64,000 nt of DNA from positions 158,027 to 222,026 of the forward strand of contig CAYSFB010000002.1 of NCBI GenBank assembly GCA_964430735.1, read 5' to 3'. Made by a program: the position numbers and the translations under genes. The DNA comes from an uncultured Planctomycetia bacterium (GTDB lineage: Bacteria > Omnitrophota > Gorgyraeia > 2-02-FULL-51-18 > JAGOUK01). Every line of letters starts with the position of its first letter. Position 1 is the first letter of the stretch. Shown one piece after another: positions 2,704 to 51,209 of the stretch. A model generated the notes under the pieces. It worked only from the letters and a program-made list of their open reading frames with translations, ran no database searches and was not told the DNA's origin.

Positions 2704-2714
2704 AAATAAATGGA

Positions 2715-14700: not shown

Positions 14701-17700
14701 GAGCAGCACATAGGCGTTCGATTCGCCCTCGATCAAGACATAGGGAGAAGTTATGATTCCTTCGGACGTCTTGCTGTAGAGCCGGAGCTCGCCTGCGACG
14801 GGAGCGATGAGTCGGCCGCCCGGAGCCAGCGCGCTCCAGACGGCATCCGGGACCTCCTTGACGGCGGCGGAGAGGACGATCGCGTCAAAAGCTCCGGGAT
14901 TTTGGGCGGCATACTGGATGCCGTCGTCCTGGACCAAGAGAACTTCCCGGCCGGATGCTTCGGGGAGGCTCCTAAGTTTCTCCAGGTTCGACCGTGCAAA
15001 CGCGGCCAGCTCGGGATCCAACTCAACCGCGACGGATTCACGGGCAAGCTGGCGCGCCCAGGCGGCCAAGTGTCCGGAGCCCGCGCCGATCTCGAGGAAA
15101 CGGTCTTCCGGCTTGAGCTGCAAGGCAGTCAGAATAAACGCCGAACGAGACGGCGCCGGCATCACCTGACCGTTCAAAGTCGCAATGGAGTCGTCCCGGT
15201 ACGCATCCGCGATCCGGTCCTTCGGAACAAAAAGATGCCGCGGCACCCGATCCATCGCATCCATCACTCGGTTCCAACTTTGAATGAAGGACTCGCTGCT
15301 TTCATAGAGCTGATCCAGCGGTTCCCGGAAGCGATCCGTGTTCATCACCGCGGACCAGACCGCCGATTTAAGATTTTCCTGCCCCTGGCGCTCATCCGCC
15401 CCGTCTCCCGCCGCCAGCCGCGCGCCCAGCTGCTTATAAATTGTCTCGAGGTTGTTCATCAGGGTTTTCCAAAATTCAGGGTCGTCGATTTGGTCACGGT
15501 CGATGCGGGCCTGCTTCTGCAACACATCGGCCAAGGCGCGGACCCTCATCGCCTCATCCAGGACCTCACCTTCACTCTTCAGGGGTCCGACACCCTGAAT
15601 CATTGCTGTAAAAAATTCCTCGTTCCCCATCAGAACGGCAAGCCGCCTCAAATCCTCCATCTCCTGAAGCCGGCGGTCGTCGGAAAGGCGCTCCAGGCGT
15701 TTGGCGAGCCAGTCATAGATTTTGAGAAGCGAATCGGAATACCGGGATCTCCGGGCGGTCTCCAGCGCCGGACGAAGTCCCCCCATTTCCCCGGCAATTT
15801 CGCTTGAAAAGATGCTGACATTTTCAAAGAATGAATGTTCCCGTGGATCGTCCAGTTCCCATTCCAGAGTCGTGATGTCCGAAGCCTCCAGCAAAATTCC
15901 TTTGAGCGCCTCGTGCCGCCGCTCGGGATTCTTAATTTGAACGGCCTTTTCGGCGGCGGCTTTAATCTTCTCAAAATCCTTCTCCAAATCCTCGATGCGC
16001 CGATTCCTGGCGAGCCACGGGCGCAGATACTGTTCGGCGAACTGCCTCCGGACGTTCGCGATTTGATCCGGCGTCAGCCCGCCTTCCTTTTTGTATCTTC
16101 CCAACCGCTTCTTGATGTCGCTGAAGACGGTCTCCGGGGAGAGCTGAGAATAAATGTAAAGAGGATGATCCGTCCGGTCATCAGCTTCGGAGCTGTATCG
16201 GTCCGCTTGTTGGATCAGCGACCGAAGCGCCTCCCGTTCCCGCTCCGTCAATCCATCGGCGGCCGCCAACCGGGCGCCTTTCAGCTCCTGAGCCGCCGCA
16301 TGAATCCTGGCCGGCAAACCTCTCTGCCGCGTCCCATCAGCTGCATCGGCGAGTCTGGATTCGGCAGGGGCAGACTGCTTCCAATCAACCAGGTAAGTCA
16401 CGTAACTGCCGGTTTCTGCGCGGTTCTCTGTGTAGTACAGAATCCTCGGATGGTCCGCGCTGGGGACCGGAAACCCTCCCGGCCAACTCCCGATGGACGG
16501 TTCGTGCAACTTCAGCTTTTCTCTAAGGTCCTGCAAAACGATGTCGTCCCCAAATTCGGGCCTGGCATTCCAGGCGACCAGCGCGCCATCGAGAGTCACG
16601 ATGGGGTTTTCTGCGGCGCCATCCAGACTCCGAGCAATCTCTTCTATGAACGTATTCCAGAAGCGGATTCCGTTTGCACCTCCGTCCTCGAGCTTTTTCA
16701 TCGTTTCGGCCAAATCGGACGTCCTGACCGATTCGGGTCGCAGCGGATAAGCAGGTGCGTTGACGGAAATAAATCGGACTGGTCCTTCGAACGCCGGTCG
16801 GCCTTCAGGATCCGTGGAGACGTTGGCGACCGCCGACTCAATTGTCTCGATGCCAGCGGCCTTCAGATTGACCCTGGCATTCGCGACGGCAAATGGATTG
16901 ATGTCCGAAATGCGGTAAACCAGTTCTTCTTCCCGCCCCGCCAGCCGGAGCGCTTCGTGCATAACCCAGGCTCCGATGCCGGTTCCGGTGCCCATGTCCC
17001 AAAGGCGGTCTCCGTCGTTGAACGAAAAACTGCCGACCTTCCTGGACAGGTCCGAAAAAAATGAGCTGTCGGCGCTGTCGTTCGCGGAATCGGCGGGCGA
17101 GTAAACGGTCGGGAAGAGAACGAAGATCGCGCGCGAGGAAGGGCCTTCTTTGGCCAGCATTTCTTTGGCCGCATCGTACATAGTAAGGGCGGGTTCGCCT
17201 TCCTGGTCCGCCTCCAGAAACGCCGACGGATCCACCCCGCTGACGTTTAATGTGGTGCCGTTGAGTTCTACATAGATAAACGGCGTCTGACGGGCTCCTT
17301 TCCACTTGCGTTCAAGCCGGGATGCCATTCCTCCGGCCTCGAGATGCTGTGCAAGCAGCTTGCGATTCGCATCGCGGGATTGGGCGAAGCTCTTCCACTC
17401 CGAGGCGGCCTCGGGATCTCCGACCCGCCGGAGGAGCTCGCCATCGATCGCGTAATCCGCCAGATCCAGATAAGAGTCCTTCTCCCCCTCCCGATCTTCA
17501 CGGAACGGATACACGGCCAGCGGAAGGCCGTTGTGCGAGTACACGCGGAACTTGACGCTTCGGCCGTCGAGGCGAGCCCATGCCGCCGGGTCCACCAGCT
17601 CCCGCAACAACAACGGACCGGTGATCATCTGCGAGGCGGCTTGCGTCTCCAGCTTCACCTCGTATTCGCGGACTTCGCCGCCGTCTTCGTCTTGGACCAC

Positions 17701-22937: not shown

Positions 22938-23013
22938 GGCCCCATCGTCTAGTGGCCTAGGACACTACCCTCTCACGGTAGGGACACGGGTTCGACTCCC
23001 GTTGGGGCTACCA
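22938..23013 (+). tRNA. tRNA-Glu (anticodon CUC)
   Basis: Cloverleaf folded by hand. Acceptor stem GGCCCCA/TGGGGCT. D-arm GTCTAGTGGCCTAGGAC (E. coli Glu-like). Anticodon stem CTACC/GGTAG with loop CTCTCAC. T-arm ACGGG TTCGACT CCCGT. Encoded CCA present. Confidence 0.85.
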
Positions 23014-36638: not shown

Positions 36639-39600
36639 TTACGCCGACTGGTCGATCGCGTCGTCCGCCATCTGAAAAAGTTCAAAAAGATCCGTCACGC
36701 TCAAAAACGCGGACGCGCGGTATTCCCGGAGCAGCAGCATCTGGGCGGGATCCGAAGGGTCCACTTCGGCCATCGCCAAACCCGCCGCCTGTGTGGGCGC
36801 GCGGCGGAACAGCATCTGCGAACCGCGGCTTTCGCGCCACAACGCGACGCCGTTGCGTACTCCCCTGAGCCGGGCCAGTTCGGCTTCGGTCAACACCGCC
36901 AGCGTGAACGGAATGTGCCGGCCGGCCTTCACTTCGGCCAGCATGCCGGTGTCGCCCGCTTCGAGCGCCGCTTCGTTTTCGACCGCCGCCAGATGCGCAT
37001 GGATCGGGTTGTCGAGTCCGCGGATGCCTTCGGCGCTCAAGTCCCCGTACTGTCCTTCGAATTGGACGTACACACCGAGAACCTTCGCCATCTTCTGGAC
37101 GGAACGGAAGACCCGTTGCATCTGCTCTTCGTTCAAGCCGCGCAGGATCGCGCCGTCCGCGTGCAGGATGACCGGCTGGCCGGCCGTGGACTTCAGATTG
37201 GGAATCAGATCTTTCTGGAGGGCCTGCCGGGCCATCTGGGCATTCCAAGGCTTCTGGATCGCGGGCATCAGCGCCGCGCCGTCCGAGCCCTTGGCATCGC
37301 CGGCATACGCCAGCGTGTTCCAGGCGAGGGCGTCGGCGAATTTCCACCGGATCGCGCCGTTGCGCATCGCCAGAATCCGGGTCAGCAAAGTGAAGATTCC
37401 GCTTGAAGCGTCGAATTCGGCCATATCGAATTCCGCTTCTTCCTCGCCCCGGAGAGCCGGCGCCGCGCCCCGGACAAATCCTTCGATCGCCTCGGTCTGC
37501 AGGCTGGCTCCCGACAACCGCGCGCCGGTCTTGGAAGGCGCCGGGGTGGTCAGATTGATTGCCACTCCTGATTGATCATCCATCAATTGATTGATGTAGT
37601 TCAGTTTGGTATCCGCCGCTATTTGCCGGCGAAGCGAATCCGCAATCCAGAGATTCAAAATCAACTTACCGTTCTTTTCTGTCAGGCCAAGCCCCAGAAT
37701 CGGGTCTTCCGGCGCATCATAGGTCTTCCCGGAAAGCGAGGACAACGGCTCTTTGGCATCTGCCGGCAAGTGGTCGACTTTGAGTTTTTTTTCCTTGCTG
37801 TCCCAGGCAATCGAACTGATGATATGAATTCCCTCATTGCGGGCAATCACCCACGTTCCATCTTCCCAGGACATGATTTGCAGCATGGACTGCTCTTGTC
37901 CTTTTGGAGACACCTGAACCATCTTTAATTTCTTGTCGGAAGCACCCGCCGCCGAATCGAACAGCTCAAAGTTCGCTAGCTGCGGGGTGGCTTGATGTTG
38001 CGTCACGAACACGGCCAGGGCCGAAGCCATGGTCAACTGCGCCATGCGCGCACCGCCGGCGGATTTAAGATCTTGGAGAGATTCCGCAATTTGCGCGGCC
38101 GTGACAGCTGCGTCGATGGCGGGCATTGGACGGATATTCAGCGTATGACTCTTATCGGAGGCATAAACACCGATCATTGCTTTGTGGCTGCCAACCTCGC
38201 GAAGACGCTCATGAACCGGCTTGCGATCAAGAAAAAGGCGGAACGCGGCCGCCAAATCCCATCCGCTGATCCTGGGATCGATGTACACGGCGTCGAACTC
38301 ACCCCATTCTTCGCGACTCTGGGCAATCCAAGCTGGAAGGATGTCTTCGAACCGGTCGCCGCCCTCGTAGCCCCTGGGCATGCGGTGGCGATGCATTTGG
38401 AGCAACGCCTGCAGCGTGTGGAGTCCGGGCGCCCCGAAGGCCTGGGGCAGGTTATAGACGGTGCGGATGCCAAGAGTTTGGAGCTCACGGAGCATATCCG
38501 CTGCCGGTTCCAGCGGCTGATTGTTCGGATGAATCCACCGGTCTTGGCGATGCAGTTCAGAAACCTGTTGAGAAAAAATATCGGTCGAAAGCCCGCCTTC
38601 CATATCGTATGAGGCGAGGATCAGATTTCCGTGATCATCTGAGTCCACGACACTCCACATCGGAGCATCCTGGACGGTCGGATCGGCCGCGATCATGCTG
38701 CCGACCGCCGGACGATCATCCTCAGCCACCAACCGGAACTTGCTGCGATCAAGCGTCACCGTAGTTTTCTCGACGCGCTGCGCTTCGCGCAGATGCTCCA
38801 AATACAGGTTCGCTTGGTCGATGAGCCCGCCCAGAAGCTTCTGAGCCGCCGGGAGAGCATATGTATTGCCATCCAAGTCATTTGCGTCCGACCGCAGATG
38901 GTCTGTTTGGCTTTTTGCTGTTTCCAGGAGTGAGAGATACGAAAGAACCCGGCTTTCTTGAGGATCAAAAAAGCTGCGCGCCAAGCCTTCCGCAGCGGCT
39001 CTGGCCTTGCCCAGCGTTTGCCGCACTGCATCGATCTGAACTTGGATTTGATTTTTCTTCTGCAAATCCGCTGCCCCTTGATCGACCAGCTGTTCTTCGC
39101 GGTTCAGCGCGACCTGGGCGATCTTAAGGGCCTCCGCCGCTCCGTCAAAATCCGCCAGCCGCGCGGCCGCAGGCCCGAATTCCGCGGTCCATTCGGCGGT
39201 CACCGATCCACCCGGGGCGATGACCTTGTCCGACGTCCCGGCGCGGGACGTGGTGGGCTCGACCGCCACGATGTCCGCCGGAAACACGGTCGGATTCTGA
39301 GGAACGAACAGGTGCACGTTGGAGTAGCCTTTCTGCGTGAGAACGAATTTTTCTCCCGTCTGCGGGTTCGTGAATTCAGAGACGGTCACGCCATCCGCCG
39401 ATTCGAGATCCGTGAACGTGGCGTCGATTTTTTCTTTTTCCAGCTTCCGGGGCGCGGCCAGATAGTCCTGGGCGGTGCCGGTCACGGGAATCACCTTGAG
39501 AGTCGACAGGCCGCTCGGGATGGTTTCGCGGACCCCGCGGGCCGGGATCCGGGCTTCGACCTGGGTCGGATTCAGCATTAAAAACCAGGGATGGTGGCCG

Positions 39601-42600
39601 AAGCCCATCTGGAACGAAACGCCTCCCGTGTTCTCGATCCGGGTTTTGACGTTGAGCGAGCCGTCCTTGCCCAGTGTATAGGTCAGATAAACACGGCCGG
39701 AGCCCTTGTACTGGGCATCCTTGAACTCGAAGATCGGATCCTGGGCCGTATCCGCGACGAGCGTGATCGATGTCGCGTCATCGCTCGACGAATGCCCCGC
39801 GTACTCCCATCGCATTTTGTCGAAATACCCGTGGATCGCGAACTGATCCGGGCCTTGGGCAGCCGGCACATAACGGATGTGCCGGTTCCTCTTGATGTCC
39901 GGCGTGATGGATCGACGGCCGACCCAGGGCGCCATGAAGGGCGCTCCCCCGCGCATGAGCGGGTTGTCCTTGCCGAACGGCTGAGAAGCGTCCTTGATCA
40001 AACGGACCGCTTCGCCGTTCTCGTCCTGACCTTCGAACCAAATCCGTTGACGGAGCGCGCCGTCCACGCCGGCCGTTTTCCAGCCCGCGATGTTGCCGCC
40101 CAGAGCCGACACCTGAAGCTCGCCTTTGCCGTCGGCGGCGGTGAGCTTGTAGACGGGATAGCCGTCGACCAGTCGCACCGTCACGTTCTGACGCTCACGA
40201 GGATGGATGTTCCGTTCCCTTGCGATTTGAACCAAAAGACGGAACGCGGACGCGGCCCATTCCAGCTGCTTCCAGCCGCCTCTGTCGCGAAGAGCTGCTT
40301 CGAACCGGTGCGTGTGAGCGGAAGTCGCGCCGAACAGATGACGACGCACCACGAGCACTTGCGCCAGATGGACGTTGGCCGCTGTGCGGTCTGTGCCCCA
40401 GAGAGACGCGGCAGCCGCTTCATTGATGTTCTCCCAGTCGCGGACGAGGGTCATGTACGCGGTCCGGCCCAAAGAATCGACCGACGCAGGAAGGCTGCCC
40501 AGCGCGAGCACGTCCAGCCAAGTCAGACCTTCGATGAAGCGGCGGTGGGCCGCAGCTTCTTCGGCAGAAAGCGTGACCACCGAACTGCGCTGGACGTAGT
40601 AACGGTCGATCCTGGGAAGGATCACCGTCTCGTAGCGCTTGATCCAGTCCCGGTTCTGACCGGGTTCCAAGGCCCCCAACATCTCGGCCTCAAAATCGAT
40701 CGGCTTCCGATCCGCCAACCGCGCGCCGGATAGCATTTGTTGCGCAGTGAGTGGCTCACCGGCAGTTTCAAAATACTTCTCAACCACTGACCACATTGCT
40801 TTTTTATCCCAAGGAGATTTAGGGACATAAATCATTTCTCTAGCCGGGGTCACAAACAACTGATCATCGGGACCAATAGTGAATGGCTTTTTATCTCCGT
40901 CGCCCGCGACAGTGAATAGCTTGCTGTTTTCACTTGTTATCCTTATCGGCCAGGGCCGAGTAATGAGCGACTGTAGATCGGTTGCTTGTCCGATAGTACC
41001 GACTCCTTGCGCCTGGATGACGGCCAACAATAACCGCTCGGCTTCGATGCCGGTCAAGCGGGCCAGCACGTGATTAGGAGGATATGCGGGAGCCTTTAGC
41101 ATTCCAGCCAGCCGAGCGCCGAAACGGCCTGCATATTTCGGGTTGGTAAAGGCATCGTCCGGAATTCCGTCGAACGGATCCCATTCTTCTTCCGTCTGCT
41201 TCACTGGCATCAAGATACCGGACGGGTAGACGATACGAACGCTCAAAGAACCCTTGGGTTTTGACAACCGCTTGTAGGAAATGGTCACGACGCGGCCTTC
41301 CCCGTCATAAAAAGAGACAGGGTCCTTTCGAACCATGACGCTCGGCTGCGCATCATCCCAGTAAGGAAGTTTGGTCACCTTTAAAAAGGAGGGGGTCTTG
41401 GAATCAACCTGTTTGGAGGAAACAGCGATGCCGAGACTTGCGTCCACGACGAGGGCCTTGCGCTTTTTGTCATATCGCATCACCATGACCTCGCGCCCCT
41501 TCTTGGGACCTTTGTCGATCACCAGAAGAATGCGCTCATCGCCGGTAATTGTGATGTTCTTCGTTTGTACCGCCTTCGCTTTCGCCAACCGCGCGCCGGT
41601 CGACGGAACGTGCCGGGGACCGGCCGGTCGCACAGCATCCTCCGAGTTCGGGTCTTGGGATAGAAACGGATCGGGAGCGTCGGGCACCACCCGGTCATTG
41701 TCATCCGAATCGTCGTCCCCGCCCAGGAACGCCAACAGAATCGAATCGGGGATCCGTTTCTTCATAAAATTATTCTTGATGGGAGGCGAATGGGTCCGGA
41801 TAAATTGACCCGCCCTGGAAGAGCCATCTGTTATCACAAGAACGGATCGATCGGCCGATTTCTTTTCGAAGTCTGGCGTCAGATTCCAGACGGCCGTCGA
41901 GATCCCTGCCGTGGCCCGCATAAACCCTTCCGAATGCCAGTGGTCCGCCGCGTAAGCCAGATGCGTAACATAGGCGTCTCCGGAGGTCAGCAAGACGTCC
42001 AGAACGGGTATTTTCCCCTGGCCGACCCACAATATTTTTTGTTTTTCATTGGCATAAATTTCTAGCAAGTTGTCATTGACCGCATGTTCCTCTTCCGAGG
42101 CTAGAAAGAACAGGATCTTTGATCCGGTTCTGGATCTCGCCTGCTTTAATAATCGGAACCACTGAAGATAAGACAGGACGTTGCGTAATTCCGCACGGTC
42201 CGTCCGGGGGAGTCCCAAGAGATCCGGTAACGACTGGGTGACCCCGTCGTCATTCACATACCCCGAAACGATCTTGGCATAATCATCCCATTGGATTCCA
42301 GATTCCGCTGATTGAAGATACATCCAAACATATTTCAAATATTTATCCCACGTCAGGATCCAGATCTTGCGTCCCGACTCCCCCATCCGCTCCATCGTTT
42401 TGAGCTGCATGTGGTCCATAGCCGACATTCCGCCGCCGGCGCCCATCTCGATATCGCTCATTGAGGCATCCAAATCCTCCGAAAGAAGCACATGCTGATG
42501 GTGATGTGACAAATCTACCAAGGAATCAATGGCACTGCTCCATACCGCAGACTCTGACTCCGTTGATGGGCGGATGCTTTCTTTCAACCCCTCTATAATT

Positions 42601-45600
42601 TCTTGATAATCGGGACGGGGCTCTGATTCAGGCTGATTGAGCAGCATGTCTTCAACAGTCTCGCTCCCAAGATATTGATGATCCATCAACAGGTTATCCC
42701 ATTCCCGCAAGACAATCCCCGCTTCGGCCCTTAGCCGGGGCGACTGCTGAAGAAGCTTTTGGTCTATGACGAACTTTTCAAACTGAGTTTTGACAGGAAC
42801 AAACGGGTCGCCTTCCCGGGGCCGGCTCATCTGATTGATCTCGTAGAAGTCCAGACCGTAAATGACGGTCCCGGCAAATACCCGATAAAACCCAATCCAA
42901 TCTGGATCCGAGTTTTTTCCAGTATTCTTGACCATCAGCCACACAAGCAAGGAATATCCAATTTCGCCGAAGTCACCGCCCTCCAATTCAATCTCGTACT
43001 GAAGGGACATGAATAAATCGCTCAGCGCTTCAAAATACTCCTTGGTATCGGGATGTGCGATATGCTGAACCTTTTCATCAAGAAACTCGAACATAAAACT
43101 TCCCAGCAGATCGATCAGCTGTTCATTATTGAGCCCGGCCAAATACTGGACTCTTCCCGACGTTATCTTTAAATATTTCTCATACCGTTTCGGAAGCGGA
43201 AACGGATTCATTTGCGGCTCCCGTTCATTCAGACGGCGAATGATATGGGCAGCATATTCACTCACCTCTAATTGCACAGCATCCGTTGAATCTGGGAATG
43301 AAATAAAAACTTTTTCCGTCTTCGCCAACCGCGCGCCGGCATCGAGATTTCTCATAGCGTCGATCTCTTGCAAAGCTAGATCGATGTTATCGCAAGCATA
43401 TTTGAGCTGGTGCCATCTGAAGTCAGGGAGCTCCTGCCAATTGGGGGCATCGGCACTCAGTTGTGTTGGGATCGCCGACAATTTTTCTCGAATGTAGTAA
43501 ATGCCTGGCGGAACCGTCCGGCTGTCACCCTGAAAGTGAGCATTGCTCCTGACAATACGGATCGCCTCCGGAAGAATCACGCGTAATGCCTGCTCGACGG
43601 TGCTAGAGAACTGCTTATTGGGGTAGGCATATCCAGCATCATAATCCAAACCTATTTGTACTTGAATCTGCTCGAGCCTGGGCAACAAATTGTTTAATGC
43701 GACTCCCATCGCTCCTTGTTGCGCCATCTGCGCACCGGAAGAGCCGCGCTCGTCCAGGGTGGCTGGGATTTCGGGACGAACCTGATCGGCGATGGGGCCC
43801 TGCTCGCTGGCGATGTTCTGCGTGCCGTCGTCGGCAGCCAAGCGTGCGCCAAGCTGTTGAAAAAAATCGTTTTGAGAAAATGGAATTACGTCGTTTTCGG
43901 CCGCCACCAACAGGACATTATTTCCGTTATCGCGCAATTCAAGCCGCAGGACGTCAGGAAACATTCTCGGCCTGTATTGCGTAAGATTTCGGGTGTAAGT
44001 AATACGTTCTCCCGGATCCAGCGGAATGCGGAATATAAATTGACGGTCCGACCGGTCGGGATACGCCTTCAGTTCGTCTCCGTTGAACGAATACGGCTTG
44101 ACCAGCAGATAAAGGACCCTTGCTTTGGCATCCAAGACGGTTTTATCAACCAGAACCTTGTTTTGAGGATAGGTGCTTCTGTCGTTTGCTCTGAACGCGT
44201 TTTTAAAAAGCCGGTCGATGGCAGCACCGACCTCTTCTTGCAGGCCCGAGGACGCCGCCTGCTTTTTGACCTCATCGGCCGCGGCGCCGTCGATCGCGGC
44301 ACGGATGGCTTGGGCGATCAAGACGGATCGGACGACCATTCCGGGAACCGCGGAGTCCACCGAACTCGCAAAATTAATGGCCCCGACGGGATAGACCCGC
44401 GGATCGATGCCGCTCGACAGGTTGTCCGGACCCAGTTCAAACTCGGCGGCGACGACCGGGTTATCGCCCTTCCTTAATTTGAGCATCCTGCCTGCGATGA
44501 GCGCCTGATTGACGGGATCCTTGCTCCTCAAGGAATCGCGATCGTATCCGGTCGCCAAAATGATCGGGCCGTCCACGGTCGTGGATTCCGAACGATCCCT
44601 GGAGCCAAGCGGTATGATCTTGGTCCGGACGCGCGGGTTCGTGTCCGATGGGGTGATCTCGACGGTCTCGAGCTTGACGGCCTTGGTGTCGAACGGCGCT
44701 CCGAGAGCATGGAGCACGACGCGGCCGTTTCGGATCCCCCGCTCAATCGCGGAAAATGTATCGGGGGTGATCGTCGTCCCGTAATCCCGTTTCCATTCTT
44801 CAATGCTGGTGTCGCCGGCCTGGCGGTCCGTGATGAGCCGCTGCGCGGACTCGACGCCGGCATGTCCTGCCGGAACCTGCAGTTGTCCGGGCTTAAGCAG
44901 CCCTACCGTATAGAGATGAACCGTAGCTTCGGGACGTGCGTCCAAAATTTCGGTAACCGCTTTGGCGGCGGCCTCGCCGCCCCCGACCACCGCAACCGAG
45001 ACCGGACCCGTGTACCCTTCCATGACCGTCCGGTACAGAGGCGTGCCCATCAGAGTCTCGGAAATGATGAGTTGAGGCAGGCGCGCGACGTCGATCTTGG
45101 AATCGGGGCTTCCGGGCTTGGCCTTGGATTTGCGCGCGAGCTCCAGCGACAATTGAATGAGACGGTCCGCGGCGGTCAACTCCTCGTGGGATGTCACCAG
45201 AACGTATTCGTTTTTATTCCGCTGGACAAAGTCCTTGAGCCCGGTCGGCATCCGCATGTGCTCTGACCGCCTGCCGGTCATCCCGGTTGCGGGGACAAGC
45301 GTGCGGGCCTTGATGAGATGGCCTTGCGAGGTCCTGATCCAGTACAGGCCGTCGTTCTTTTTCTCGATCGAAGCGACGTCCGCCCCTTCAACGACGATTC
45401 CGCCCCGGTCCTGGATCATGCCGGCAGCGTGGGAAAGATATTGAAAAAATTCGTTGCGTGCCAAAGGCGACTGAACGTCCTTCGGGTCGGCCGCATTCTT
45501 CGGCTGCGTCGAAGCGAATTGGCGCGAAGCGGCGCGTCCGACAACATCGCGCGCGCGGATTCCGCGCTCACGGTAAACGGCCAGCTGTGTCTCAAGCGCC

Positions 45601-48600
45601 GCCGCCTGGACGAGGTCCTTGCCTGACTTGCCCGCTCGCACAAGCGAGCTCTGCTCCGCATTGGTCCGCATCCAGTGAGTGTCGTGCGCCTTCGCGTCCG
45701 AAAAACCGCCTCCCACATAATCGCTCACGATCACGGTCTTAAGCTTGGCGTCCACCGCGTGCAGTCCCGCGGATAAGCCCGCAGGTCCCGCGCCGATCAC
45801 GGCCACGTCGGCAACGTCATCCCCCCAGCGGGCGTACTCGATCCGGCTCAAGTCCTGGGGCGTGTGAAGAAACCGGCGGGTCCTCAAAATCCCGTCCGCC
45901 ATCAAAAAAGGGCTCTCCGATTGCTGCGCCAGAAGCGCATATTCCTTATCTGTCACCACACGCGTCCCGGTCGCCTCATCCGCCGACCGCTCCTCGTCTG
46001 ACGCCAGCCGCGCGCCGTTCAAGTAATCGAATATTTCCCCGTTTGCGGCTTCGACCTTATTGATGGCCGCTTCTAATCTTGTGGTAGACGCCTGCGGGTA
46101 GTCCACTTTCGAAGCTTTGCTCATTTGAAAAAGCATGGCGTGAGCTTCCCTGCTGCCTTTAATCAGGCTATCCAGGCGCTTTTTCAGCTTCTCAAGCTCC
46201 AACAGCGAATGAATATCATCGTTCCGATTGACCCACCGAATTATCTTTTGGAGCTGCAACACGAGCGGTTTGATGAGGACGTTGGCGTTGAATGACTGCG
46301 GGTTCTCGGTTACACCCGGTTGATTCAGGGTGATTTTATACCCCTCAAGAAGCTTGCCGGCTTCCGAGTATTCGGCCTCAGCAGAAGTCAGTTTGGACAG
46401 AACCGCGGATTTAATGTCTTCCGAAGCGCTCCCCTGCTCCGCCAGCTGCGCGCCGGCGCCGATCTGGTCCCGCACCCGTACGGCGTGGCGCAAGGCTTCC
46501 CTCAAAGAAACTTCAGCTGTCATGTATTCGGACGCGATTCCAGCTCCGAATTCGGGCCCGTCGGGAGCGCTCATGATGGTTTTCTGGACTTGTTTCAGCA
46601 GCGCGGCGTTCCTCTCGACCGTGGCGATCACCGCATCGATGTTCCGGCGCACCGCATCGGCCACCGACGCCTCGTCCAGGCTGCCTTCCGGCAGCCACTC
46701 GCGGACCGATGCGTCCAGAGCGCGCAATTCCTGGGTAGGAGACAGAGACTGGACGCTGCCTTCGAACGGCATGACAAAACTCAAATTCGGAAGATCGGGA
46801 GCGGCCTTCAGCGCTTCGCCGACCTGGTTCCGCACCTGACGGACCCCCGCCTCTAGCCGGGCGTCCGCCAGCCGCGCGCCGGACAGTTTGAAGTCGAGGT
46901 TCCGGATGAAGAGGCCCCAGGCGAGCTGGGCGGCGGCTTCGGCGTTCTCGTCCTTGCCCGTATAGACTTCGCCCAGGTGAGCAAGCTCAACAGCCCTGGT
47001 TCTGAAGAGAGCCTCCGATAACTGGATGGTCCCTTGATTCTGAGCGTACGATTCCAAAAATGCCATAAGCTGCTCAGCGATTCCGTTCACAAGGGGATTA
47101 TCGGATCTGGACTCGCTCGAGTTTTCCGCTATCTGCCGCTTTGTTTTAACGGCCGTGTCCCTCATCTCGGCGATCGTGACCTCCACGCGCTTGATCTGCG
47201 CCAGACGGGCACCGGACGACTGGACCCGGGTGACCTTGGCTCCGGAGGCTTCGACCAGGGATTTCATCGCGTCGGACTGGGATTTGGGAACCCAGAACTT
47301 GAGGACGCGGTCGGTCACGGGCTCTTCCGTACCGATGTTGGAGACCGAGAAAAGGACATCCGAGTTGGCTTCCAAGGGTTCCAGACGGATGATCCAGCGG
47401 TTCCGGGCCTCGTGATGGATATAGCGCAGTTTGTATTCGTATTTTTTTCCGTTCGTTTCGAGCGTAACGCGGCGGTCTGCATGAACCGGGATCTCAATTT
47501 TCTGGAGAGGCAGGTCCGCACCCCCGTCACGAACGGCGATTCCGGCGCCGGGCATCAGATGGGCGACGACGGCCTTCCTGGAGGACTCCACATCCACCTC
47601 AACCCCGCCCCGTACTTCGCGGGCAGCCAGACGGGCACCGCCAGTCTGAAGACGGATCTTATTAAGGACGTTCTTGAGATGAGATACCCCCTCATAGTCA
47701 GATCCGGGATAATGGGCCAGGATATCTATTGCAAGTAGCCAGATTTGCTCTCGCAGCTTCTTGGAGCTGCGAACATCCGTCCAGCGGTCCAGCACTTTCG
47801 ATATGGATCCCATTTCATATGAAACCGCAATAGCTGTTCCTCTTCCTGAGGTCGTCACATAATTAGACATCCACCTCTTCCTCAAGAGAGCCTTGTAAAG
47901 TTCAAGTATGTGAATTTTGTTGGTGGTTTTTTTGGCCCGGCCTAGAGCTTCGATAGCCTGCCCTCCGTACAGCGGGCTCTTCAGATACTTTGTCAGGATA
48001 TCTATAACTTCTTTCCTGTCGGGTCCAATGGCTGCGGCGGCCTCAATGGCTGCCTTCCGCACATCAGGCTCCACATTCCAGCCGTCAATGATCTTGATCA
48101 AGCTCGGCAGCGCCTTATCCGCCCGGCGAGAGTAGGATGCGATCTCTTCCAGGTCATTTATCATCGACTGATGAACACTACGGTCGAAGTCAGAATGATG
48201 AAGTCCGTCCTTCACTTTGCTTTCGAGAGAATTTACCAGATCTTTCGGCGCGGATTTTACTGCCATCCGCGCGCCGGCATTGGAGCCGCGTTCGTCCATA
48301 GTGGTGGGTGGGACTTCGGGGCGGACCTGATCGGCGATGGGGCCCTGCTCGCTGGCCAAATTGCCGGGGCGATCGCCTTCCTGAATAGCCAACCGGGCCG
48401 CCGCCACGAGGGCTTCCTGCATCACGGGCGTCGTGCGGACGAAGTAGGGGTCGCTGATATTGCGCGCGGAGACTGGAACACGGGCGCTAAAAGCCGGCTG
48501 AATATGAGCGGGGCCCTTTAACAGGATCCGCTCATACCGGGCAAAGTCCGTCTCGTGATAGACGTTCGGGATGATCGAAACATACGAGATTCCGCGGGAC

Positions 48601-50036
48601 TTAAAAAGTTCCTTGAGATGCTTCGCGTGGAAGCCGCCGGTCACGAGGATGGCGGTCCTCATCTCTTTTTCGGCGATCCTGGAGGAGAGATTCTTCACGA
48701 AGGCCTGGTCGCGGTCGAAGGAGCTCTCGTAAAACGCGCGGGCGTCCTGAACGGCCTGGGTCAAAAACGGCTCGCTGCGCAGGGCGTTGTCGTAGTGCTT
48801 CTTGAGTTCGAGGATCTTTTTATTGATGAAGCCGGTCTGAATCTGCACGTCGATGAGTTCCGGACGGGCCTGGATGTGAAGGTACTCGTCAGGGCCGATC
48901 TGGAGCGAAAGGAGCTTCTTTTCAAGTTCGATGCCGCGGCTCAGGAGAACCAACGCCGTCTGATCGGACGTCGTCGCGAGCGTTTTAAAGAGAAGGTCTT
49001 CGAGCTCATCGATTTCTCTCAGAGCCTTGTCGGCCTTGAGAGAATGGGACGCTTGGATGTAGGCGATGTATTTGAAAAGTTCGGGATAACGGCGGCCGGC
49101 GTCGGAACCGGCGAGTTTTTCTTCCAAATAAAGGAAAAAGGTCCGGGTGTCCTCCGCGGAAGCGCGGTTCACCTTTTGAAGCGGCTTCTTAAGGGAAGCG
49201 ATCTCCTGCCGATCGGCTTCCGGAAGCGTGCGAATCGCGGCTTCTTCCTGAAGGGACGCGGCGGCAAAGTCGATTGAGGATTCCTTGAATTGAAGATCTT
49301 TTAAGGTTTTAAGTTCGGAAAAAAGAGAAAGGTCGATTCCGGTTTCGCGGGCCGCCGCATCCAGCAGCGCAAAATACTGGGTGAGCCCGATTTCCTGCGA
49401 CTCGTATTGCGCCTTGGCGCGGTCGAGTTTTTTCAACGCGTCGGAATAAAAAACGTCCTTCATCGCCGCTGTCGAGCGGTCGATCCGGTCGAGCAATGCG
49501 AGCGCTTTTTCGCGGCTTGCCGCCGCCTTACGGTACGCCTCAAGCGCCTTGTCATAAAGAGGCTTGTCCTCGACGCCCCACAGCGTGAACGGACGGTTCG
49601 ACGCCAAATTCGCCAACTCGCTCCCCTTCACCAGTCCCTTGTTCAGGAAGTTCTCCGCCGCGCCGACCAGCGCTTCCCGGGACAGGGAGTCGCGCAAAAA
49701 CGCGATCGACAGATCCCCGCTCTCGCCTTCCACAAAGACATGCGTGACCGGCTCTTTTTCGAGAATGCGGTCGATGGCTTTGGCGAGGTTCTTTTGGCCG
49801 GAAGGATTGGTGTGCGCGTCCTGGATCAAAATGATTTTTGGGGCCGCGGCTTCGCCGCGATGGGAATCTTCGACGGTGCCGACCGAGGCCGGCAACTCAA
49901 ATGAGACGATGGGGTGGGTCAGGTTCTGGATGAGCGCGGCAGCTTCGGGTGCTGCAAGAGCGGCTTCCTGCGTGCACATAAGAAAAGTCAACAAGAACGC
50001 GACAGGACGCAAAACAAAAGCGCGAGAAGCCTGCAT
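36639..50036 (-). CDS. giant secreted multidomain protein (4465 aa), paralog of the 5758..19614 gene
   Basis: Uninterrupted 13.4-kb ORF. ATG at 50036 with an AAGGAG ribosome-binding site. Signal peptide. N-terminal domain homologous to giant 1 (ILIQDAHTNPSGQ / LVTGGFHAKHLKEL). FAD Rossmann motifs (VIGAGPAGLSAG and VVGGGEAAAKA) near 45.0-45.9 kb. Aldose-1-epimerase-like domain (GGNIAGW...HGYFDK...FGHHPWF) near 39.3-40.3 kb. Eleven or more GARLA copies plus GARMA, GAQLA and GAQMA variants. Confidence 0.85.
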   Translation of the reverse strand: MQASRAFVLRPVAFLLTFLMCTQEAALAAPEAAALIQNLTHPIVSFELPASVGTVEDSHRGEAAAPKIILIQDAHTNPSGQKNLAKAIDRILEKEPVTHVFVEGESGDLSIAFLRDSLSREALVGAAENFLNKGLVKGSELANLASNRPFTLWGVEDKPLYDKALEAYRKAAASREKALALLDRIDRSTAAMKDVFYSDALKKLDRAKAQYESQEIGLTQYFALLDAAARETGIDLSLFSELKTLKDLQFKESSIDFAAASLQEEAAIRTLPEADRQEIASLKKPLQKVNRASAEDTRTFFLYLEEKLAGSDAGRRYPELFKYIAYIQASHSLKADKALREIDELEDLLFKTLATTSDQTALVLLSRGIELEKKLLSLQIGPDEYLHIQARPELIDVQIQTGFINKKILELKKHYDNALRSEPFLTQAVQDARAFYESSFDRDQAFVKNLSSRIAEKEMRTAILVTGGFHAKHLKELFKSRGISYVSIIPNVYHETDFARYERILLKGPAHIQPAFSARVPVSARNISDPYFVRTTPVMQEALVAAARLAIQEGDRPGNLASEQGPIADQVRPEVPPTTMDERGSNAGARMAVKSAPKDLVNSLESKVKDGLHHSDFDRSVHQSMINDLEEIASYSRRADKALPSLIKIIDGWNVEPDVRKAAIEAAAAIGPDRKEVIDILTKYLKSPLYGGQAIEALGRAKKTTNKIHILELYKALLRKRWMSNYVTTSGRGTAIAVSYEMGSISKVLDRWTDVRSSKKLREQIWLLAIDILAHYPGSDYEGVSHLKNVLNKIRLQTGGARLAAREVRGGVEVDVESSRKAVVAHLMPGAGIAVRDGGADLPLQKIEIPVHADRRVTLETNGKKYEYKLRYIHHEARNRWIIRLEPLEANSDVLFSVSNIGTEEPVTDRVLKFWVPKSQSDAMKSLVEASGAKVTRVQSSGARLAQIKRVEVTIAEMRDTAVKTKRQIAENSSESRSDNPLVNGIAEQLMAFLESYAQNQGTIQLSEALFRTRAVELAHLGEVYTGKDENAEAAAQLAWGLFIRNLDFKLSGARLADARLEAGVRQVRNQVGEALKAAPDLPNLSFVMPFEGSVQSLSPTQELRALDASVREWLPEGSLDEASVADAVRRNIDAVIATVERNAALLKQVQKTIMSAPDGPEFGAGIASEYMTAEVSLREALRHAVRVRDQIGAGAQLAEQGSASEDIKSAVLSKLTSAEAEYSEAGKLLEGYKITLNQPGVTENPQSFNANVLIKPLVLQLQKIIRWVNRNDDIHSLLELEKLKKRLDSLIKGSREAHAMLFQMSKASKVDYPQASTTRLEAAINKVEAANGEIFDYLNGARLASDEERSADEATGTRVVTDKEYALLAQQSESPFLMADGILRTRRFLHTPQDLSRIEYARWGDDVADVAVIGAGPAGLSAGLHAVDAKLKTVIVSDYVGGGFSDAKAHDTHWMRTNAEQSSLVRAGKSGKDLVQAAALETQLAVYRERGIRARDVVGRAASRQFASTQPKNAADPKDVQSPLARNEFFQYLSHAAGMIQDRGGIVVEGADVASIEKKNDGLYWIRTSQGHLIKARTLVPATGMTGRRSEHMRMPTGLKDFVQRNKNEYVLVTSHEELTAADRLIQLSLELARKSKAKPGSPDSKIDVARLPQLIISETLMGTPLYRTVMEGYTGPVSVAVVGGGEAAAKAVTEILDARPEATVHLYTVGLLKPGQLQVPAGHAGVESAQRLITDRQAGDTSIEEWKRDYGTTITPDTFSAIERGIRNGRVVLHALGAPFDTKAVKLETVEITPSDTNPRVRTKIIPLGSRDRSESTTVDGPIILATGYDRDSLRSKDPVNQALIAGRMLKLRKGDNPVVAAEFELGPDNLSSGIDPRVYPVGAINFASSVDSAVPGMVVRSVLIAQAIRAAIDGAAADEVKKQAASSGLQEEVGAAIDRLFKNAFRANDRSTYPQNKVLVDKTVLDAKARVLYLLVKPYSFNGDELKAYPDRSDRQFIFRIPLDPGERITYTRNLTQYRPRMFPDVLRLELRDNGNNVLLVAAENDVIPFSQNDFFQQLGARLAADDGTQNIASEQGPIADQVRPEIPATLDERGSSGAQMAQQGAMGVALNNLLPRLEQIQVQIGLDYDAGYAYPNKQFSSTVEQALRVILPEAIRIVRSNAHFQGDSRTVPPGIYYIREKLSAIPTQLSADAPNWQELPDFRWHQLKYACDNIDLALQEIDAMRNLDAGARLAKTEKVFISFPDSTDAVQLEVSEYAAHIIRRLNEREPQMNPFPLPKRYEKYLKITSGRVQYLAGLNNEQLIDLLGSFMFEFLDEKVQHIAHPDTKEYFEALSDLFMSLQYEIELEGGDFGEIGYSLLVWLMVKNTGKNSDPDWIGFYRVFAGTVIYGLDFYEINQMSRPREGDPFVPVKTQFEKFVIDQKLLQQSPRLRAEAGIVLREWDNLLMDHQYLGSETVEDMLLNQPESEPRPDYQEIIEGLKESIRPSTESESAVWSSAIDSLVDLSHHHQHVLLSEDLDASMSDIEMGAGGGMSAMDHMQLKTMERMGESGRKIWILTWDKYLKYVWMYLQSAESGIQWDDYAKIVSGYVNDDGVTQSLPDLLGLPRTDRAELRNVLSYLQWFRLLKQARSRTGSKILFFLASEEEHAVNDNLLEIYANEKQKILWVGQGKIPVLDVLLTSGDAYVTHLAYAADHWHSEGFMRATAGISTAVWNLTPDFEKKSADRSVLVITDGSSRAGQFIRTHSPPIKNNFMKKRIPDSILLAFLGGDDDSDDNDRVVPDAPDPFLSQDPNSEDAVRPAGPRHVPSTGARLAKAKAVQTKNITITGDERILLVIDKGPKKGREVMVMRYDKKRKALVVDASLGIAVSSKQVDSKTPSFLKVTKLPYWDDAQPSVMVRKDPVSFYDGEGRVVTISYKRLSKPKGSLSVRIVYPSGILMPVKQTEEEWDPFDGIPDDAFTNPKYAGRFGARLAGMLKAPAYPPNHVLARLTGIEAERLLLAVIQAQGVGTIGQATDLQSLITRPWPIRITSENSKLFTVAGDGDKKPFTIGPDDQLFVTPAREMIYVPKSPWDKKAMWSVVEKYFETAGEPLTAQQMLSGARLADRKPIDFEAEMLGALEPGQNRDWIKRYETVILPRIDRYYVQRSSVVTLSAEEAAAHRRFIEGLTWLDVLALGSLPASVDSLGRTAYMTLVRDWENINEAAAASLWGTDRTAANVHLAQVLVVRRHLFGATSAHTHRFEAALRDRGGWKQLEWAASAFRLLVQIARERNIHPRERQNVTVRLVDGYPVYKLTAADGKGELQVSALGGNIAGWKTAGVDGALRQRIWFEGQDENGEAVRLIKDASQPFGKDNPLMRGGAPFMAPWVGRRSITPDIKRNRHIRYVPAAQGPDQFAIHGYFDKMRWEYAGHSSSDDATSITLVADTAQDPIFEFKDAQYKGSGRVYLTYTLGKDGSLNVKTRIENTGGVSFQMGFGHHPWFLMLNPTQVEARIPARGVRETIPSGLSTLKVIPVTGTAQDYLAAPRKLEKEKIDATFTDLESADGVTVSEFTNPQTGEKFVLTQKGYSNVHLFVPQNPTVFPADIVAVEPTTSRAGTSDKVIAPGGSVTAEWTAEFGPAAARLADFDGAAEALKIAQVALNREEQLVDQGAADLQKKNQIQVQIDAVRQTLGKARAAAEGLARSFFDPQESRVLSYLSLLETAKSQTDHLRSDANDLDGNTYALPAAQKLLGGLIDQANLYLEHLREAQRVEKTTVTLDRSKFRLVAEDDRPAVGSMIAADPTVQDAPMWSVVDSDDHGNLILASYDMEGGLSTDIFSQQVSELHRQDRWIHPNNQPLEPAADMLRELQTLGIRTVYNLPQAFGAPGLHTLQALLQMHRHRMPRGYEGGDRFEDILPAWIAQSREEWGEFDAVYIDPRISGWDLAAAFRLFLDRKPVHERLREVGSHKAMIGVYASDKSHTLNIRPMPAIDAAVTAAQIAESLQDLKSAGGARMAQLTMASALAVFVTQHQATPQLANFELFDSAAGASDKKLKMVQVSPKGQEQSMLQIMSWEDGTWVIARNEGIHIISSIAWDSKEKKLKVDHLPADAKEPLSSLSGKTYDAPEDPILGLGLTEKNGKLILNLWIADSLRRQIAADTKLNYINQLMDDQSGVAINLTTPAPSKTGARLSGASLQTEAIEGFVRGAAPALRGEEEAEFDMAEFDASSGIFTLLTRILAMRNGAIRWKFADALAWNTLAYAGDAKGSDGAALMPAIQKPWNAQMARQALQKDLIPNLKSTAGQPVILHADGAILRGLNEEQMQRVFRSVQKMAKVLGVYVQFEGQYGDLSAEGIRGLDNPIHAHLAAVENEAALEAGDTGMLAEVKAGRHIPFTLAVLTEAELARLRGVRNGVALWRESRGSQMLFRRAPTQAAGLAMAEVDPSDPAQMLLLREYRASAFLSVTDLFELFQMADDAIDQSA
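43721..43810. repeat. intragenic direct repeat, copy A (pairs with 48281..48356)
   Basis: An ~85-bp segment including CTGATCGGCGATGGGGCCCTGCTCGCTGGC recurs with few mismatches. It encodes the duplicated peptide ASEQGPIADQVRPE preceded by a GARMA or GAQMA motif. Confidence 0.7.
48281..48356. repeat. intragenic direct repeat, copy B (pairs with 43721..43810)
   Basis: See copy A. Confidence 0.7.
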
Positions 50037-51124: not shown

Positions 51125-51209
51125 TGGTGCAGGAGGAGGGATTTGAACCCTCAATCCGTAAGGAACATGATCCTTAGTCATGCGCGTATGCCAATTCCGC
51201 CACTCCTGC
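51125..51209 (-). tRNA. tRNA-Leu (type II, long variable arm), apparent anticodon AAG
   Basis: Minus-strand sequence GCAGGAGTGGCGGAATTGGCATACGCGCATGACTAAGGATCATGTTCCTTACGGATTGAGGGTTCAAATCCCTCCTCCTGCACCA. Acceptor 7 bp. Anticodon stem CATGA/TCATG with loop CTAAGGA (U33, G37). 13-nt variable arm. T-arm GAGGG TTCAAAT CCCTC. Encoded CCA present. Confidence 0.75.

Follow-up and report, generated by a model that had tools for sequence, protein, structure and literature searches.

A recurrent pentapeptide appears to bound the shuffled cassettes of giant Omnitrophota proteins and may separate the products of a polyprotein-like array

The 64-kb stretch of contig CAYSFB010000002.1 analyzed here (hereinafter the window) comes from an uncultivated Omnitrophota bacterium. 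It has a GC content of about 60% and carries tatC, rmlC, the genes for inorganic pyrophosphatase and PEPCK, many two-component genes and, as detected with Rfam, two tRNAs over its whole length. Situated among these are two long minus-strand open reading frames (ORFs), whose products we term giant 1 and giant 2 (Table 1). Both appear to be built in the same order: a Sec-type signal peptide, a domain with a predicted TIKI-type fold (hereinafter the N-terminal domain), a linker with the first copy of a pentapeptide of the form GARLA, a variable series of segments bounded by further copies (cassettes), and a C-terminal module. An exact-protein look-up found no record of giant 2. The initial annotation of this DNA had drawn attention to the pentapeptide, and had offered as possible roles a proteolytic processing site or a marker of module boundaries.

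Exact GARLA is found seven times in giant 1 and nine times in giant 2, which amounts to 16 copies in the window against about 0.08 expected. In 2000 residue shuffles of each protein, the mean count was 0.05 for giant 1 and 0.03 for giant 2, with a maximum of 2, and GARLA is the commonest 5-mer of both proteins. With conservative variants included, there are about 10 sites in giant 1 and about 16 in giant 2. Hence, the counts given in the initial annotation (about 13 in giant 2 and 6-8 in giant 1) are correct once variants are admitted, and the exact copies alone lie far above what amino acid composition predicts. All 16 copies are in the reading frame of the giants, with a single further GARLA seen in the six-frame translation of the window. 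The sequence around them is, as had been claimed, otherwise unrelated: BLAST recovers no similarity between giant 1 and giant 2 beyond the N-terminal ~550 residues, and self-comparison reveals no internal repeats within either.

Beyond the window, homologs of the N-terminal domain are almost confined to Candidatus Omnitrophota. A scan of one genome per species yielded 578 confirmed loci, 80 of which were kept for analysis (named in the form L003-L080). This set holds no close relative of the source genome (top identity 37-41%); its ORFs were extended, and many of its giants are incomplete, being cut by the edge of the 10-kb flank. In one clade of this family, the motif [GA]-A-R-[LMF]-[AST] recurs 5-31 times per protein. 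Pooling 21 related giants (71,088 aa, from genomes of 46-65% GC), we found 116 exact copies of GARLA against 0.3 expected, so that a look at other genomes bears out the recurrence seen in the window. Eleven exact copies each are present in L024, L036, and L055, 10 in L021, and seven, plus six of GARLS, in L025. Two additional giants retrieved through cassette homology (see below) display the same feature, P0023 (3047 aa) with eight copies of GARMA and P0024 (7482 aa) with 31 motif sites against 0.02 expected. The substitutions seen in the pooled giants are limited to A for the first residue (G), M and less often F for the fourth (L), and S and less often T for the fifth (A), and the Arg is near-invariant (116/118). 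In a logo built on 147 instances (20+ proteins), the five motif positions carry 2.7-4.0 bits, while the flanks, which the initial annotation had rightly described as unconserved, carry about 0.1 bit at most positions, reaching up to 0.4 at the two that adjoin the motif. Given such uninformative flanks, GARLA is, as judged from its sequence context, an isolated short linear motif outside any repeat domain; likewise, neither the self-comparisons nor Pfam, in which no model covers any motif site and no motif falls inside a domain match, places it within a known repeat-domain profile.

The residues surrounding the motif are nevertheless not random in composition: within 20 residues on either side, hydrophobic residues are depleted and disorder-promoting ones enriched, with acidic residues overrepresented as well on the downstream side (p = 1e-7 to 1e-20). 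The acidic linker said to follow the motif is thus real, if modest (16.2% acidic residues downstream versus 13.2% at random, p = 1e-7). At the nucleotide level, 77 distinct 15-mers encode 114 copies, each of which is in frame and on the coding strand. This diversity, the strict frame dependence, and the conservative amino acid substitutions indicate that selection acts on the translated peptide. The observation that codons differ among copies stands, yet their usage is skewed toward GGC GCG CGG YTG GCG relative to the way these amino acids are encoded in the remainder of the proteins concerned. The skew is strongest at the motif Arg, where CGG is used 67 times versus 23.5 expected (chi-square 102). 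Codon-pair context accounts for the skew only partly; an exchange of cassettes assisted by microhomology, or an effect on translation, may lie behind it.

Throughout the 80 loci, the motif is seen solely in proteins with the N-terminal domain or in their tandem neighbor giants, save for an artifact: a conserved SSDSASGISKGARLASA upstream of four giants, which contains a spurious GARLASA, was rejected as an antisense frame of nuoH. In the four genomes concerned, nuoH lies about 3.5 kb upstream of the giant (L025:5911, L030:4291, L033:6201, and L069:876). As nuoA follows the giant in L030, the giants of these four genomes seemingly lie within or beside a nuo cluster.

The role of the motif as a boundary emerges from comparisons among the giants. 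All-versus-all BLAST found little similarity beyond the N-terminal domain, and where it is present, it runs from motif to motif. Thus, residues 536-1437 of L017 correspond to residues 1655-2557 of L021 at 46% identity, with motifs at 537/1433 and 1656/2553, respectively, and a cassette comprising residues 592-1113 of giant 1 corresponds to residues 2268-2742 of L036. In both pairs, identity drops to the background level immediately past the bounding motifs, and the common cassettes differ in rank from one array to the other. When residues 2063-3262 of giant 2 were used for an exhaustive HMMER search against 1.84 billion representative proteins, there were two matches, P0023 and P0024, each spanning exactly one motif-bounded cassette. 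Both of these proteins, found by cassette homology alone, have the N-terminal domain and the motif. The cassettes have a median length of about 250 aa, and the Pfam domains that can be recognized in the giants (PCMT, FAD oxidoreductase, aldose epimerase, HEAT, DnaJ, GT2, and methyltransferases) each lie within a single one; in the four cases compared (PCMT, FAD oxidoreductase, DnaJ, and one methyltransferase), the domain starts about 25-70 aa past a motif. There are also 25 short spacers of 13-57 aa between paired sites. A search for stand-alone versions of cassettes among the ORFs of the loci recovered only paralogs of the N-terminal domain and one PCMT match, and a search with the C-terminal module of giant 2 gave no match. 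A single-sequence AlphaFold prediction of three consecutive cassettes (giant 2 residues 930-1360) had a predicted local distance difference test (pLDDT) score of 42 and provided no domain-boundary information. With inter-giant homology that begins and ends at motifs, cassette ranks that differ, and Pfam domains that are free of motifs, these sequence comparisons strongly support the proposal that the pentapeptide marks module boundaries, the modules being cassettes that evolve as independent units.

The tempo of this evolution can be gauged from P0023, which is the positional ortholog of giant 2: on the contig carrying it (L081), the downstream gene order is the same as in the window, and the neighboring proteins are 81-92% identical. 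The C-terminal modules of the two giants are 90% identical, whereas their N-terminal domains are only 58% identical. Moreover, they have just four cassettes in common, at other ranks and in a noncollinear order, and most of their cassettes are not shared. One cassette of P0023 is 83% identical to its counterpart at a different rank in giant 2; the aldose-epimerase cassette, about the eleventh of giant 2, is the first of P0023, and GARMA is used in P0023 where giant 2 has GARLA. Because the N-terminal domain has diverged and most cassettes have been replaced amidst such well-conserved neighbors, this fast turnover suggests that the giants act at an interface under diversifying selection. Giant 2 itself bears traces of cassette exchange. 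One is a block of cassettes (residues ~1945-3112, window ~40700-44200) with a GC content of 0.44-0.56 as against about 0.60 around it, whose right edge coincides with the GARLA at residue 3104; this suggests that several cassettes were acquired together, recently, from a donor of lower GC content. The other is a 54-nt direct repeat (window 43758-43811 and 48303-48356, 93% identical) encoding the spacer ASEQGPIADQVRPE between paired sites. One copy lies right behind the N-terminal domain and the other at residues 2063-2101, and the repeat is probably a recombination footprint that carried the linker following the N-terminal domain into the middle of the array.

The N-terminal domain is the only module of catalytic type that is constant in the family. 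Its AlphaFold model (giant 2 residues 1-587, computed with a 24-sequence alignment as input) has a pLDDT of 81.5, with residues 45-505 mostly above 90, and consists of a small alpha/beta core with a central parallel beta-sheet that is interrupted by a helical insert of about 300 aa. The linker that bears AARLA 546 falls below 50, and GARMA 588 is just beyond it. Five residues (D73, H75, E103, R442, and H470) are invariant in 79/79 sequences and define an acid-x-His...Glu...Arg...GGxH pattern. The catalytic set of RRSP, two His and two Glu joined by a conserved basic residue, is E3900/H3902/E3930/R4001/H4030, and that of Bcr135 includes H85/E113 (PMC6254334). The invariant residues run in the RRSP order, with an H-to-E distance of 28 residues as in both RRSP and Bcr135 and an R-to-H distance of 28 versus 29 in RRSP. 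This comparison is by order and spacing, and the first acidic residue is Asp where the TIKI/TraB/ChaN/erythromycin-esterase superfamily has Glu, a difference that joins the splitting of the core by the helical insert. Structures of this superfamily named beside the model are those of RRSP (5w6l), ChaN (2g5g), a TraB-family protein (8bqs), Bcr135/136 (2rad and 2qgm), EreC (6xcq), and HopBA1 (5t09).

Profile methods fall short of significance for this relationship. The full N-terminal domain has no match to the Pfam models of the superfamily (PF01963, PF04187, and PF05139), and core-only sequences give sub-threshold matches to PF04187 (ChaN/Tiki) in 2/15 cases (E = 0.0025) and to PF01963 (TraB) in 1/15 (E = 0.009). 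PDB sequences, searched by profile with both the full and the core-only domain, yielded nothing, nor did NCBIfam, and Foldseek against the PDB returned no significant match. Hence, a TIKI-type fold is supported by the predicted structure, with formal family membership unproven. In 11/24 N-terminal domains, the insert has a weak match to the PAH peptide-binding helical domain. An internal cassette of L055 (residues 2206-2256) has a weak match of its own to ChaN/Tiki (PF04187, E = 3e-4) and may be a second TIKI-like domain. Both TIKI and RRSP are site-specific endopeptidases (PMC6254334). The superfamily also holds esterases and a heme-binding protein, and the fold alone is no proof of protease activity. 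In 26/27 giants, the first motif lies 73-185 residues beyond the GGxH of the N-terminal domain.

A neighbor-joining tree of 79 N-terminal domains resolves three clades. Clade I comprises fused giants that lack the recurrent motif. In clade II, the N-terminal domain is encoded by a stand-alone gene of about 520 aa. Two to four separate genes of 1000-2500 aa come after it in the same orientation; they are free of the motif, and every one of them has a Sec-type signal peptide as well as a conserved tail at the C-terminus (L023, L026, L027, L034, L035, L037, L051, L068, L072, and L080). This arrangement looks like an "unfused" form of the giant system. Clade III contains essentially all motif-bearing giants. 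That the separate genes are free of the motif and the fused cassettes bear it fits a separator function; no homology between these separate genes and the cassettes could be demonstrated. A search of the giants lacking GARLA for another separator, run with exact and with reduced-alphabet k-mers on single proteins and on the pooled set, found none save a faint SRMS in one genome. Scans of metagenomes for near relatives of the N-terminal domain of giant 2 recovered none, and a scan of viral contigs found no member of the family, which is therefore not a phage feature.

Features of exported proteins recur at several points along the giants. Both start with a Sec-type signal peptide, beyond which there are only 1-4 weak hydrophobic segments. 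Cys is restricted to residues 14 and 19, within the signal peptide, in giant 1 and to residues 21 and 2215 in giant 2, and P0024 has none in 7482 aa; on average, Cys makes up 0.14% of motif-bearing giants versus 0.59% of the products of neighboring genes. The scarcity of Cys, which is typical of chains exported or translocated unfolded, suggests export when taken along with the Sec signal. Tat signals are N-terminal elements. In the giants, canonical ones lie 3-10 aa past a motif at L021:2842, L057:649, L070:3925, giant 1:2234, and P0024:2532, with GARLAQGKTRRDFLQGLAGLGAIAL, GARMAGMSRRDFLLLGMGAAAG, GARLAGEDPSRRDFLRRMVGIL, GARLALKVNRRLFLGAVFAGLAW, and GARMAENKPDRRKFLAVAGIATAAV as the examples, and a sixth case is found 21 aa past the motif at giant 1:3212. 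They occur in 5/227 motif windows versus 0.8% of random windows, and two of the four strict Tat motifs fall within the 8% of sequence right behind motifs (p = 0.036). The location of such N-terminal-type signals deep in the protein, directly behind the separator, hints at a new N-terminus. Their placement is the strongest hint in the sequence, albeit from small numbers, that termini are generated at the motif. A further Tat-like sequence, VTRRGFVGGGLAVGLSQLLPNRAGA, is present at residue ~1795 of giant 1 (window ~14150-14230), in the middle of the cassette spanning residues 1397-2233 and with no recognizable motif before it. Either a boundary without GARLA exists at this point or some Tat-like elements do not mark a new N-terminus.

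The opposite end of the giants is also constrained: a conserved tail ends every complete family member, whether motif-bearing or not. It takes the form ...QEAVATSL* in clade I and ...Y..TLNKI* in the partner proteins of clade II. In clade III, it is often ...[GA]AR[ML][AS]x5-8[AS]A*, i.e., motif-like at 9-13 residues from the end, as in the ...GARMALQAA* and ...AARMSERSA* of related giants. The resemblance suggests a common machinery that reads the tail as well as the internal motifs, and the tail could act as a signal for sorting, secretion, or processing.

The polar and flexible context of the motif, the Tat signals behind it, the resemblance of the N-terminal domain to a superfamily with proteases, and the placement of the first motif directly after this domain all point to processing. 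Proteolysis, the first role envisaged in the initial annotation, is accordingly the best-supported mechanism, although cleavage as such is deduced from these features. For a crosslinking or modification site, likewise suggested in the initial annotation, the sequence data speak neither in favor nor against. The motif would then be an endoproteolytic site, at which one ORF would give rise to many separate polypeptides, and the giant would be a polyprotein; cuts after the Arg or after the Leu are the obvious candidates for the scissile bond. We see an even chance that the motif separates the cassettes of a polyprotein-like array as a processing site, perhaps one cut by the N-terminal domain of the giant itself; the cleaving enzyme, the bond, and the compartment are what we infer from sequence. 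The domain is the best candidate protease, putatively acting on its own chain, in view of its invariant catalytic-type residues, the placement of the first motif, the confinement of the motif to one clade, and the lack of any other conserved neighbor. The full scenario, wherein this N-terminal endopeptidase cuts G-A-R-L-A and releases up to ~30 proteins, including enzymes, J-domain proteins, and Tat-exported proteins, is put forward tentatively, and we deem it somewhat doubtful.

Several observations weigh against the processing scenario or its assignment to the N-terminal domain. The catalytic residues are just as invariant in the motif-free clades I (fused) and II (stand-alone), and the activity of the domain is therefore not exclusively tied to GARLA. 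In the JBLINS01 genome (a metagenome-assembled genome of 41% GC), seven paralogs (L004, L008, L010, L014, L015, L038, and L040) are scattered in clade III and retain 0-3 degenerate sites (such as SSRMA, GSRLA, and ASRMT), though nested among motif-bearing relatives. Such genome-wide decay fits a change in one trans-acting factor better than one in seven cis-acting proteases; alternatively, it looks like relaxation under AT pressure. The assignment to the TIKI superfamily comes from fold and residue pattern, no hidden Markov model match having reached the threshold, and the Tat enrichment is based on few cases. Finally, there is a tension between the Sec signal and low Cys content, which imply export, and the Tat signals and the J-domain, S-adenosylmethionine-dependent methyltransferase, and GT2 cassettes, which imply folding in a cytoplasm. 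This could be the cytoplasm of the producer or, on a more speculative view, of a cell that serves as host or prey, the latter by analogy with MARTX toxins (PMC6315884) and in light of the host-dependent lifestyle proposed for the phylum (PMC10066038).

None of the genes near the giants offers an alternative enzyme. BLAST with the HEXXH protein, the FecR-domain protein, the putative outer-membrane protein, and the small upstream gene against the ORFs flanking the 80 loci found none of them conserved, and no other gene is conserved beside the giants at these loci. The initial annotation had speculated that the neighboring HEXXH protease performs the processing. This is not supported: an opposite-strand gene stands between it and giant 1, and it has no homolog at the 80 loci; the genes called near the ortholog of giant 2 do not include one either. 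The window and L081 are syntenic on the downstream side of giant 2 and, on the other side, up to and including the small upstream gene, with a break at the tRNA-Leu; beyond it, L081 has genes for trypsin-like and PDZ proteins and the window a PAS-LuxR gene. The trypsin-like and PDZ genes were rejected as candidates, being absent from the window and all 80 loci. An Rfam search of four loci gave no match.

Table 1. Giants, motif sites, and neighboring features in the window (coordinates are window positions; residue numbers are those of the respective giant)
Feature	Position	Strand	Remarks
Giant 1	5758..19614	-	4618 aa; architecture as giant 2; paralogous to it in the N-terminal domain only (30% identity)
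Giant 1 N-terminal domain (aa ~51-520)	18055..19464	-	homologous to that of giant 2
Giant 1 first sites, AARFA aa 560, GARFA aa 573, AARLA aa 592	17827..17937	-	behind the N-terminal domain
GARLA, giant 1 aa 1113	16264..16278	-	closes cassette aa 592-1113, common to L036 aa 2268-2742
GARLA, giant 1 aa 1397	15412..15426	-	PCMT methyltransferase domain begins ~50 aa further on
GARLA, giant 1 aa 2234	12901..12915	-	at +8, Tat-like signal NRRLFLGAVFAGLAWSP (12820-12891)
GARLA, giant 1 aa 3212	9967..9981	-	at +21, Tat-like signal SRRGFFRWTALPAVLSVAG (9835-9918)
GARLA, giant 1 aa 3469	9196..9210	-	sequence match
GARLA, giant 1 aa 4284	6751..6765	-	sequence match
GARLA, giant 1 aa 4375	6478..6492	-	opens the C-terminal module
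Giant 1 C-terminal tail	5761..5880	-	ends ...LLDAMRRMIQAVAKAA*
Giant 2	36639..50036	-	4465 aa; signal peptide, N-terminal TIKI-like domain (predicted), then ~14 cassettes with motifs between them and a C-terminal module that is conserved
Giant 2 N-terminal domain (aa ~45-505)	48522..49904	-	predicted TIKI/TraB/ChaN/erythromycin-esterase-like fold; ~300-aa helical insert; invariant D73, H75, E103, R442, H470
AARLA, giant 2 aa 546	48387-48401	-	among the first sites, in the disordered linker behind the N-terminal domain
GARMA, giant 2 aa 588	48261..48275	-	among the first sites, directly after that linker
GARLA, giant 2 aa 800	47625..47639	-	opens cassette 83% identical to P0023 aa 1913-2055
GARLA, giant 2 aa 942	47199..47213	-	sequence match
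GARLA, giant 2 aa 1053	46866..46880	-	sequence match
GAQLA, giant 2 aa 1195	46440-46454	-	variant
GARLA, giant 2 aa 1341	46002..46016	-	FAD-oxidoreductase domain begins 69 aa further on
GARLA, giant 2 aa 2063	43836..43850	-	first of a pair: 38-aa spacer, then GAQMA aa 2101 (43722-43736)
GARLA, giant 2 aa 2234	43323..43337	-	closes cassette common to P0023 aa 954-1093
GARLA, giant 2 aa 2814	41583..41597	-	sequence match
GARLA, giant 2 aa 2973	41106..41120	-	opens cassette common to P0024 aa 908-1054
GARLA, giant 2 aa 3104	40713..40727	-	closes cassette common to P0024 aa 908-1054; right edge of low-GC block
AARLA, giant 2 aa 3624	39153-39167	-	variant
GARMA, giant 2 aa 3995	38040-38054	-	variant
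GARLS, giant 2 aa 4171	37512..37526	-	opens the C-terminal module, 90% identical to that of the ortholog
Giant 2 C-terminal tail	36642..36761	-	ends ...LFELFQMADDAIDQSA*
FecR-domain protein	3277-5700	-	807 aa; flanks giant 1
432-aa protein	19733-21031	+	no Pfam match; may be an outer-membrane barrel
HEMTH metalloprotease-like protein	21040-22800	-	586 aa; the HEXXH protein of the text; weak flagellinolysin/MXAN_6640 similarity
tRNA-Glu (ctc)	22938-23013		
tRNA-Leu (aag)	51125-51209		synteny break

Other functions of the pentapeptide have to be weighed against cleavage by the N-terminal domain. GARLA might be an uncleaved docking motif bound by a chaperone, by a component of a secretion or sorting system, or by the insert of the N-terminal domain, such that the giant stays intact and its cassettes are individually recognized. 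Binding motifs typically form isolated islands of this kind, here of five residues within linkers that are polar and accessible, the motif-like sequence close to the C-terminus of several giants resembles a recognition tag, the weak PAH matches would place a peptide-binding domain in the insert, and the scarcity of Cys suits a single chain exported unfolded. We nonetheless regard docking as rather unlikely, as it leaves unexplained the Tat signals right behind the motif, the paired sites with their short spacers, and the resemblance of the cassettes to complete enzymes with the catalytic domain near the cassette start; moreover, no candidate partner gene is conserved nearby. Alternatively, the motif could be cut in trans by an unlinked dedicated protease, e.g., an Arg-specific one of the serine type acting at GAR|LA, with the N-terminal domain acting elsewhere, such as on the C-terminal tail or on a nonprotein substrate. 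The equal conservation of the catalytic set in the motif-free clades and the joint loss or degradation of the motif in all seven JBLINS01 paralogs, as if one trans factor had changed, both speak in its favor, as do the near-invariance of the Arg, in the manner of Arg-specific proteases, and the trypsin-fold gene upstream of the ortholog of giant 2. However, that gene is missing from the window and the 80 loci, no neighboring protease is conserved, and neither the restriction of the motif to proteins with the N-terminal domain or their tandem neighbors nor the position of the first site directly behind this domain (26/27) favors an unlinked enzyme; we consider such an enzyme unlikely.

The motif might also be the amino acid by-product of a ~15-nt DNA site or microhomology that drives in-frame shuffling of cassettes. 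The swapping of cassettes at the motif and their reordering between close relatives are in line with this, as are a codon skew that goes beyond the usage of the proteins themselves (chi-square up to 102) and codon-pair context, the 54-nt repeat that joins two junction spacers of giant 2, and the termination of the low-GC block at a motif. Yet a DNA-level site sits poorly with 77 different 15-mers in 114 copies, every one of which lies on the coding strand in the translated frame, with conservative amino acid substitutions that include changes at the first codon position, and with the GARMA of the ortholog in place of the GARLA of giant 2. No recombinase is associated with the giants, and microhomology-assisted exchange may be secondary rather than the selected function, making a recombination junction quite improbable as the primary explanation. 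We attach a very low probability to a co-translational separator, in which nascent GARLA and its preferred codons would cause ribosome pausing or a protease-free, 2A-like skipping of peptide bonds. The strict reading-frame dependence and the nonrandom codons, with strongly overused CGG, would be compatible with it, but five residues are short for a nascent-chain effector, and L/M/F and A/S/T variants and many codons are tolerated; moreover, bacteria are not known to have a mechanism of this type.

Processing at the motif would give the giants a mode of action comparable to that of two well-studied classes of proteins. Like the MARTX toxins, they are very large, apparently secreted polypeptides whose ends are conserved and whose middle part is a modular series of unrelated enzymatic domains. 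In MARTX, the regions between effectors are cut by a built-in protease domain, thereby releasing the effectors (PMC6315884). The effector content of MARTX varies by strain, just as the cassettes of the giants are reshuffled between positional orthologs, and the RRSP effector has the TIKI fold that is predicted for the N-terminal domain of the giants (PMC6254334). In contrast to MARTX, Pfam detects in either giant no RTX/glycine-rich or hemolysin-type repeats, which MARTX has toward both its N- and C-terminus, and no C80 cysteine protease domain activated by inositol hexakisphosphate (InsP6), and the giants are essentially Cys-free. Their candidate protease has a different fold and is N-terminal, no type I secretion genes lie near them, they belong to another phylum, and their cleavage is deduced. 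The separator of MARTX is a loose Leu-containing linker; that of the giants is a strict pentapeptide, with up to 31 cassettes versus at most five. In the viral polyproteins of picornaviruses, potyviruses, and nidoviruses, one ORF gives many products by way of a short, context-free motif and a protease encoded in the ORF itself. The giants are similar in having a motif between cassettes that behave as independent evolutionary units in one ORF. They differ in being encoded by cellular chromosomal genes amid housekeeping and regulatory genes, in being missing from the viral contig collection, in the fold of the candidate protease, and in having variable, shuffled cassettes as opposed to a fixed gene order. 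Thus, by analogy, the giants may work like a MARTX toxin or a viral polyprotein, while the lack of RTX repeats and of the cysteine protease domain, the other fold of the candidate protease, and the cellular location of the genes make them a member of neither.

Giant proteins have been described in Omnitrophota before, in the form of the archaeovorin and dockerin giants (West-Roberts et al. 2023 bioRxiv 10.1101/2023.11.21.568195; Seymour et al. 2023 PMC10066038). These are likewise very long, poorly annotated, and fast-evolving ORFs of the same phylum. However, they span 20-85 thousand residues, are rich in transmembrane helices, and combine a C39 or S8 peptidase with domains of the SecA-like and adhesion types. 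The present family has 1.5-7.5 thousand residues and few transmembrane helices, with a TIKI-like domain at the N-terminus and cassettes that contain enzymes; Pfam found none of the C39, S8, SecA-like, and adhesion domains in giant 1 or giant 2. In a full-text literature search, the motif was not described, including in the two papers on Omnitrophota giant proteins and a 2026 complete-genome preprint. According to the main paper on these giants, missing information on cleavage points prevented analysis per product. The motif owes its interest to the question of whether the giants of Omnitrophota and other ultra-small host-dependent bacteria act as a single chain or as cut pieces. For a widespread family of 1.5-7.5 thousand residues, it supplies sequence-defined boundaries and the first concrete, testable candidates for processing points, permitting structure prediction and annotation per cassette. 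The processing model predicts peptide termini at GAR|LA or GARL|A and names a candidate enzyme with five residues to mutate. If it is true, the family would present a compact new pair of protease and site, a new specificity within the TIKI superfamily, and an operon-like organization at the protein level, i.e., a "one ORF, many proteins" strategy that is undescribed for cellular prokaryotes at such a scale. The cassette array with its fast turnover would then possibly constitute an effector arsenal of host-dependent Omnitrophota.

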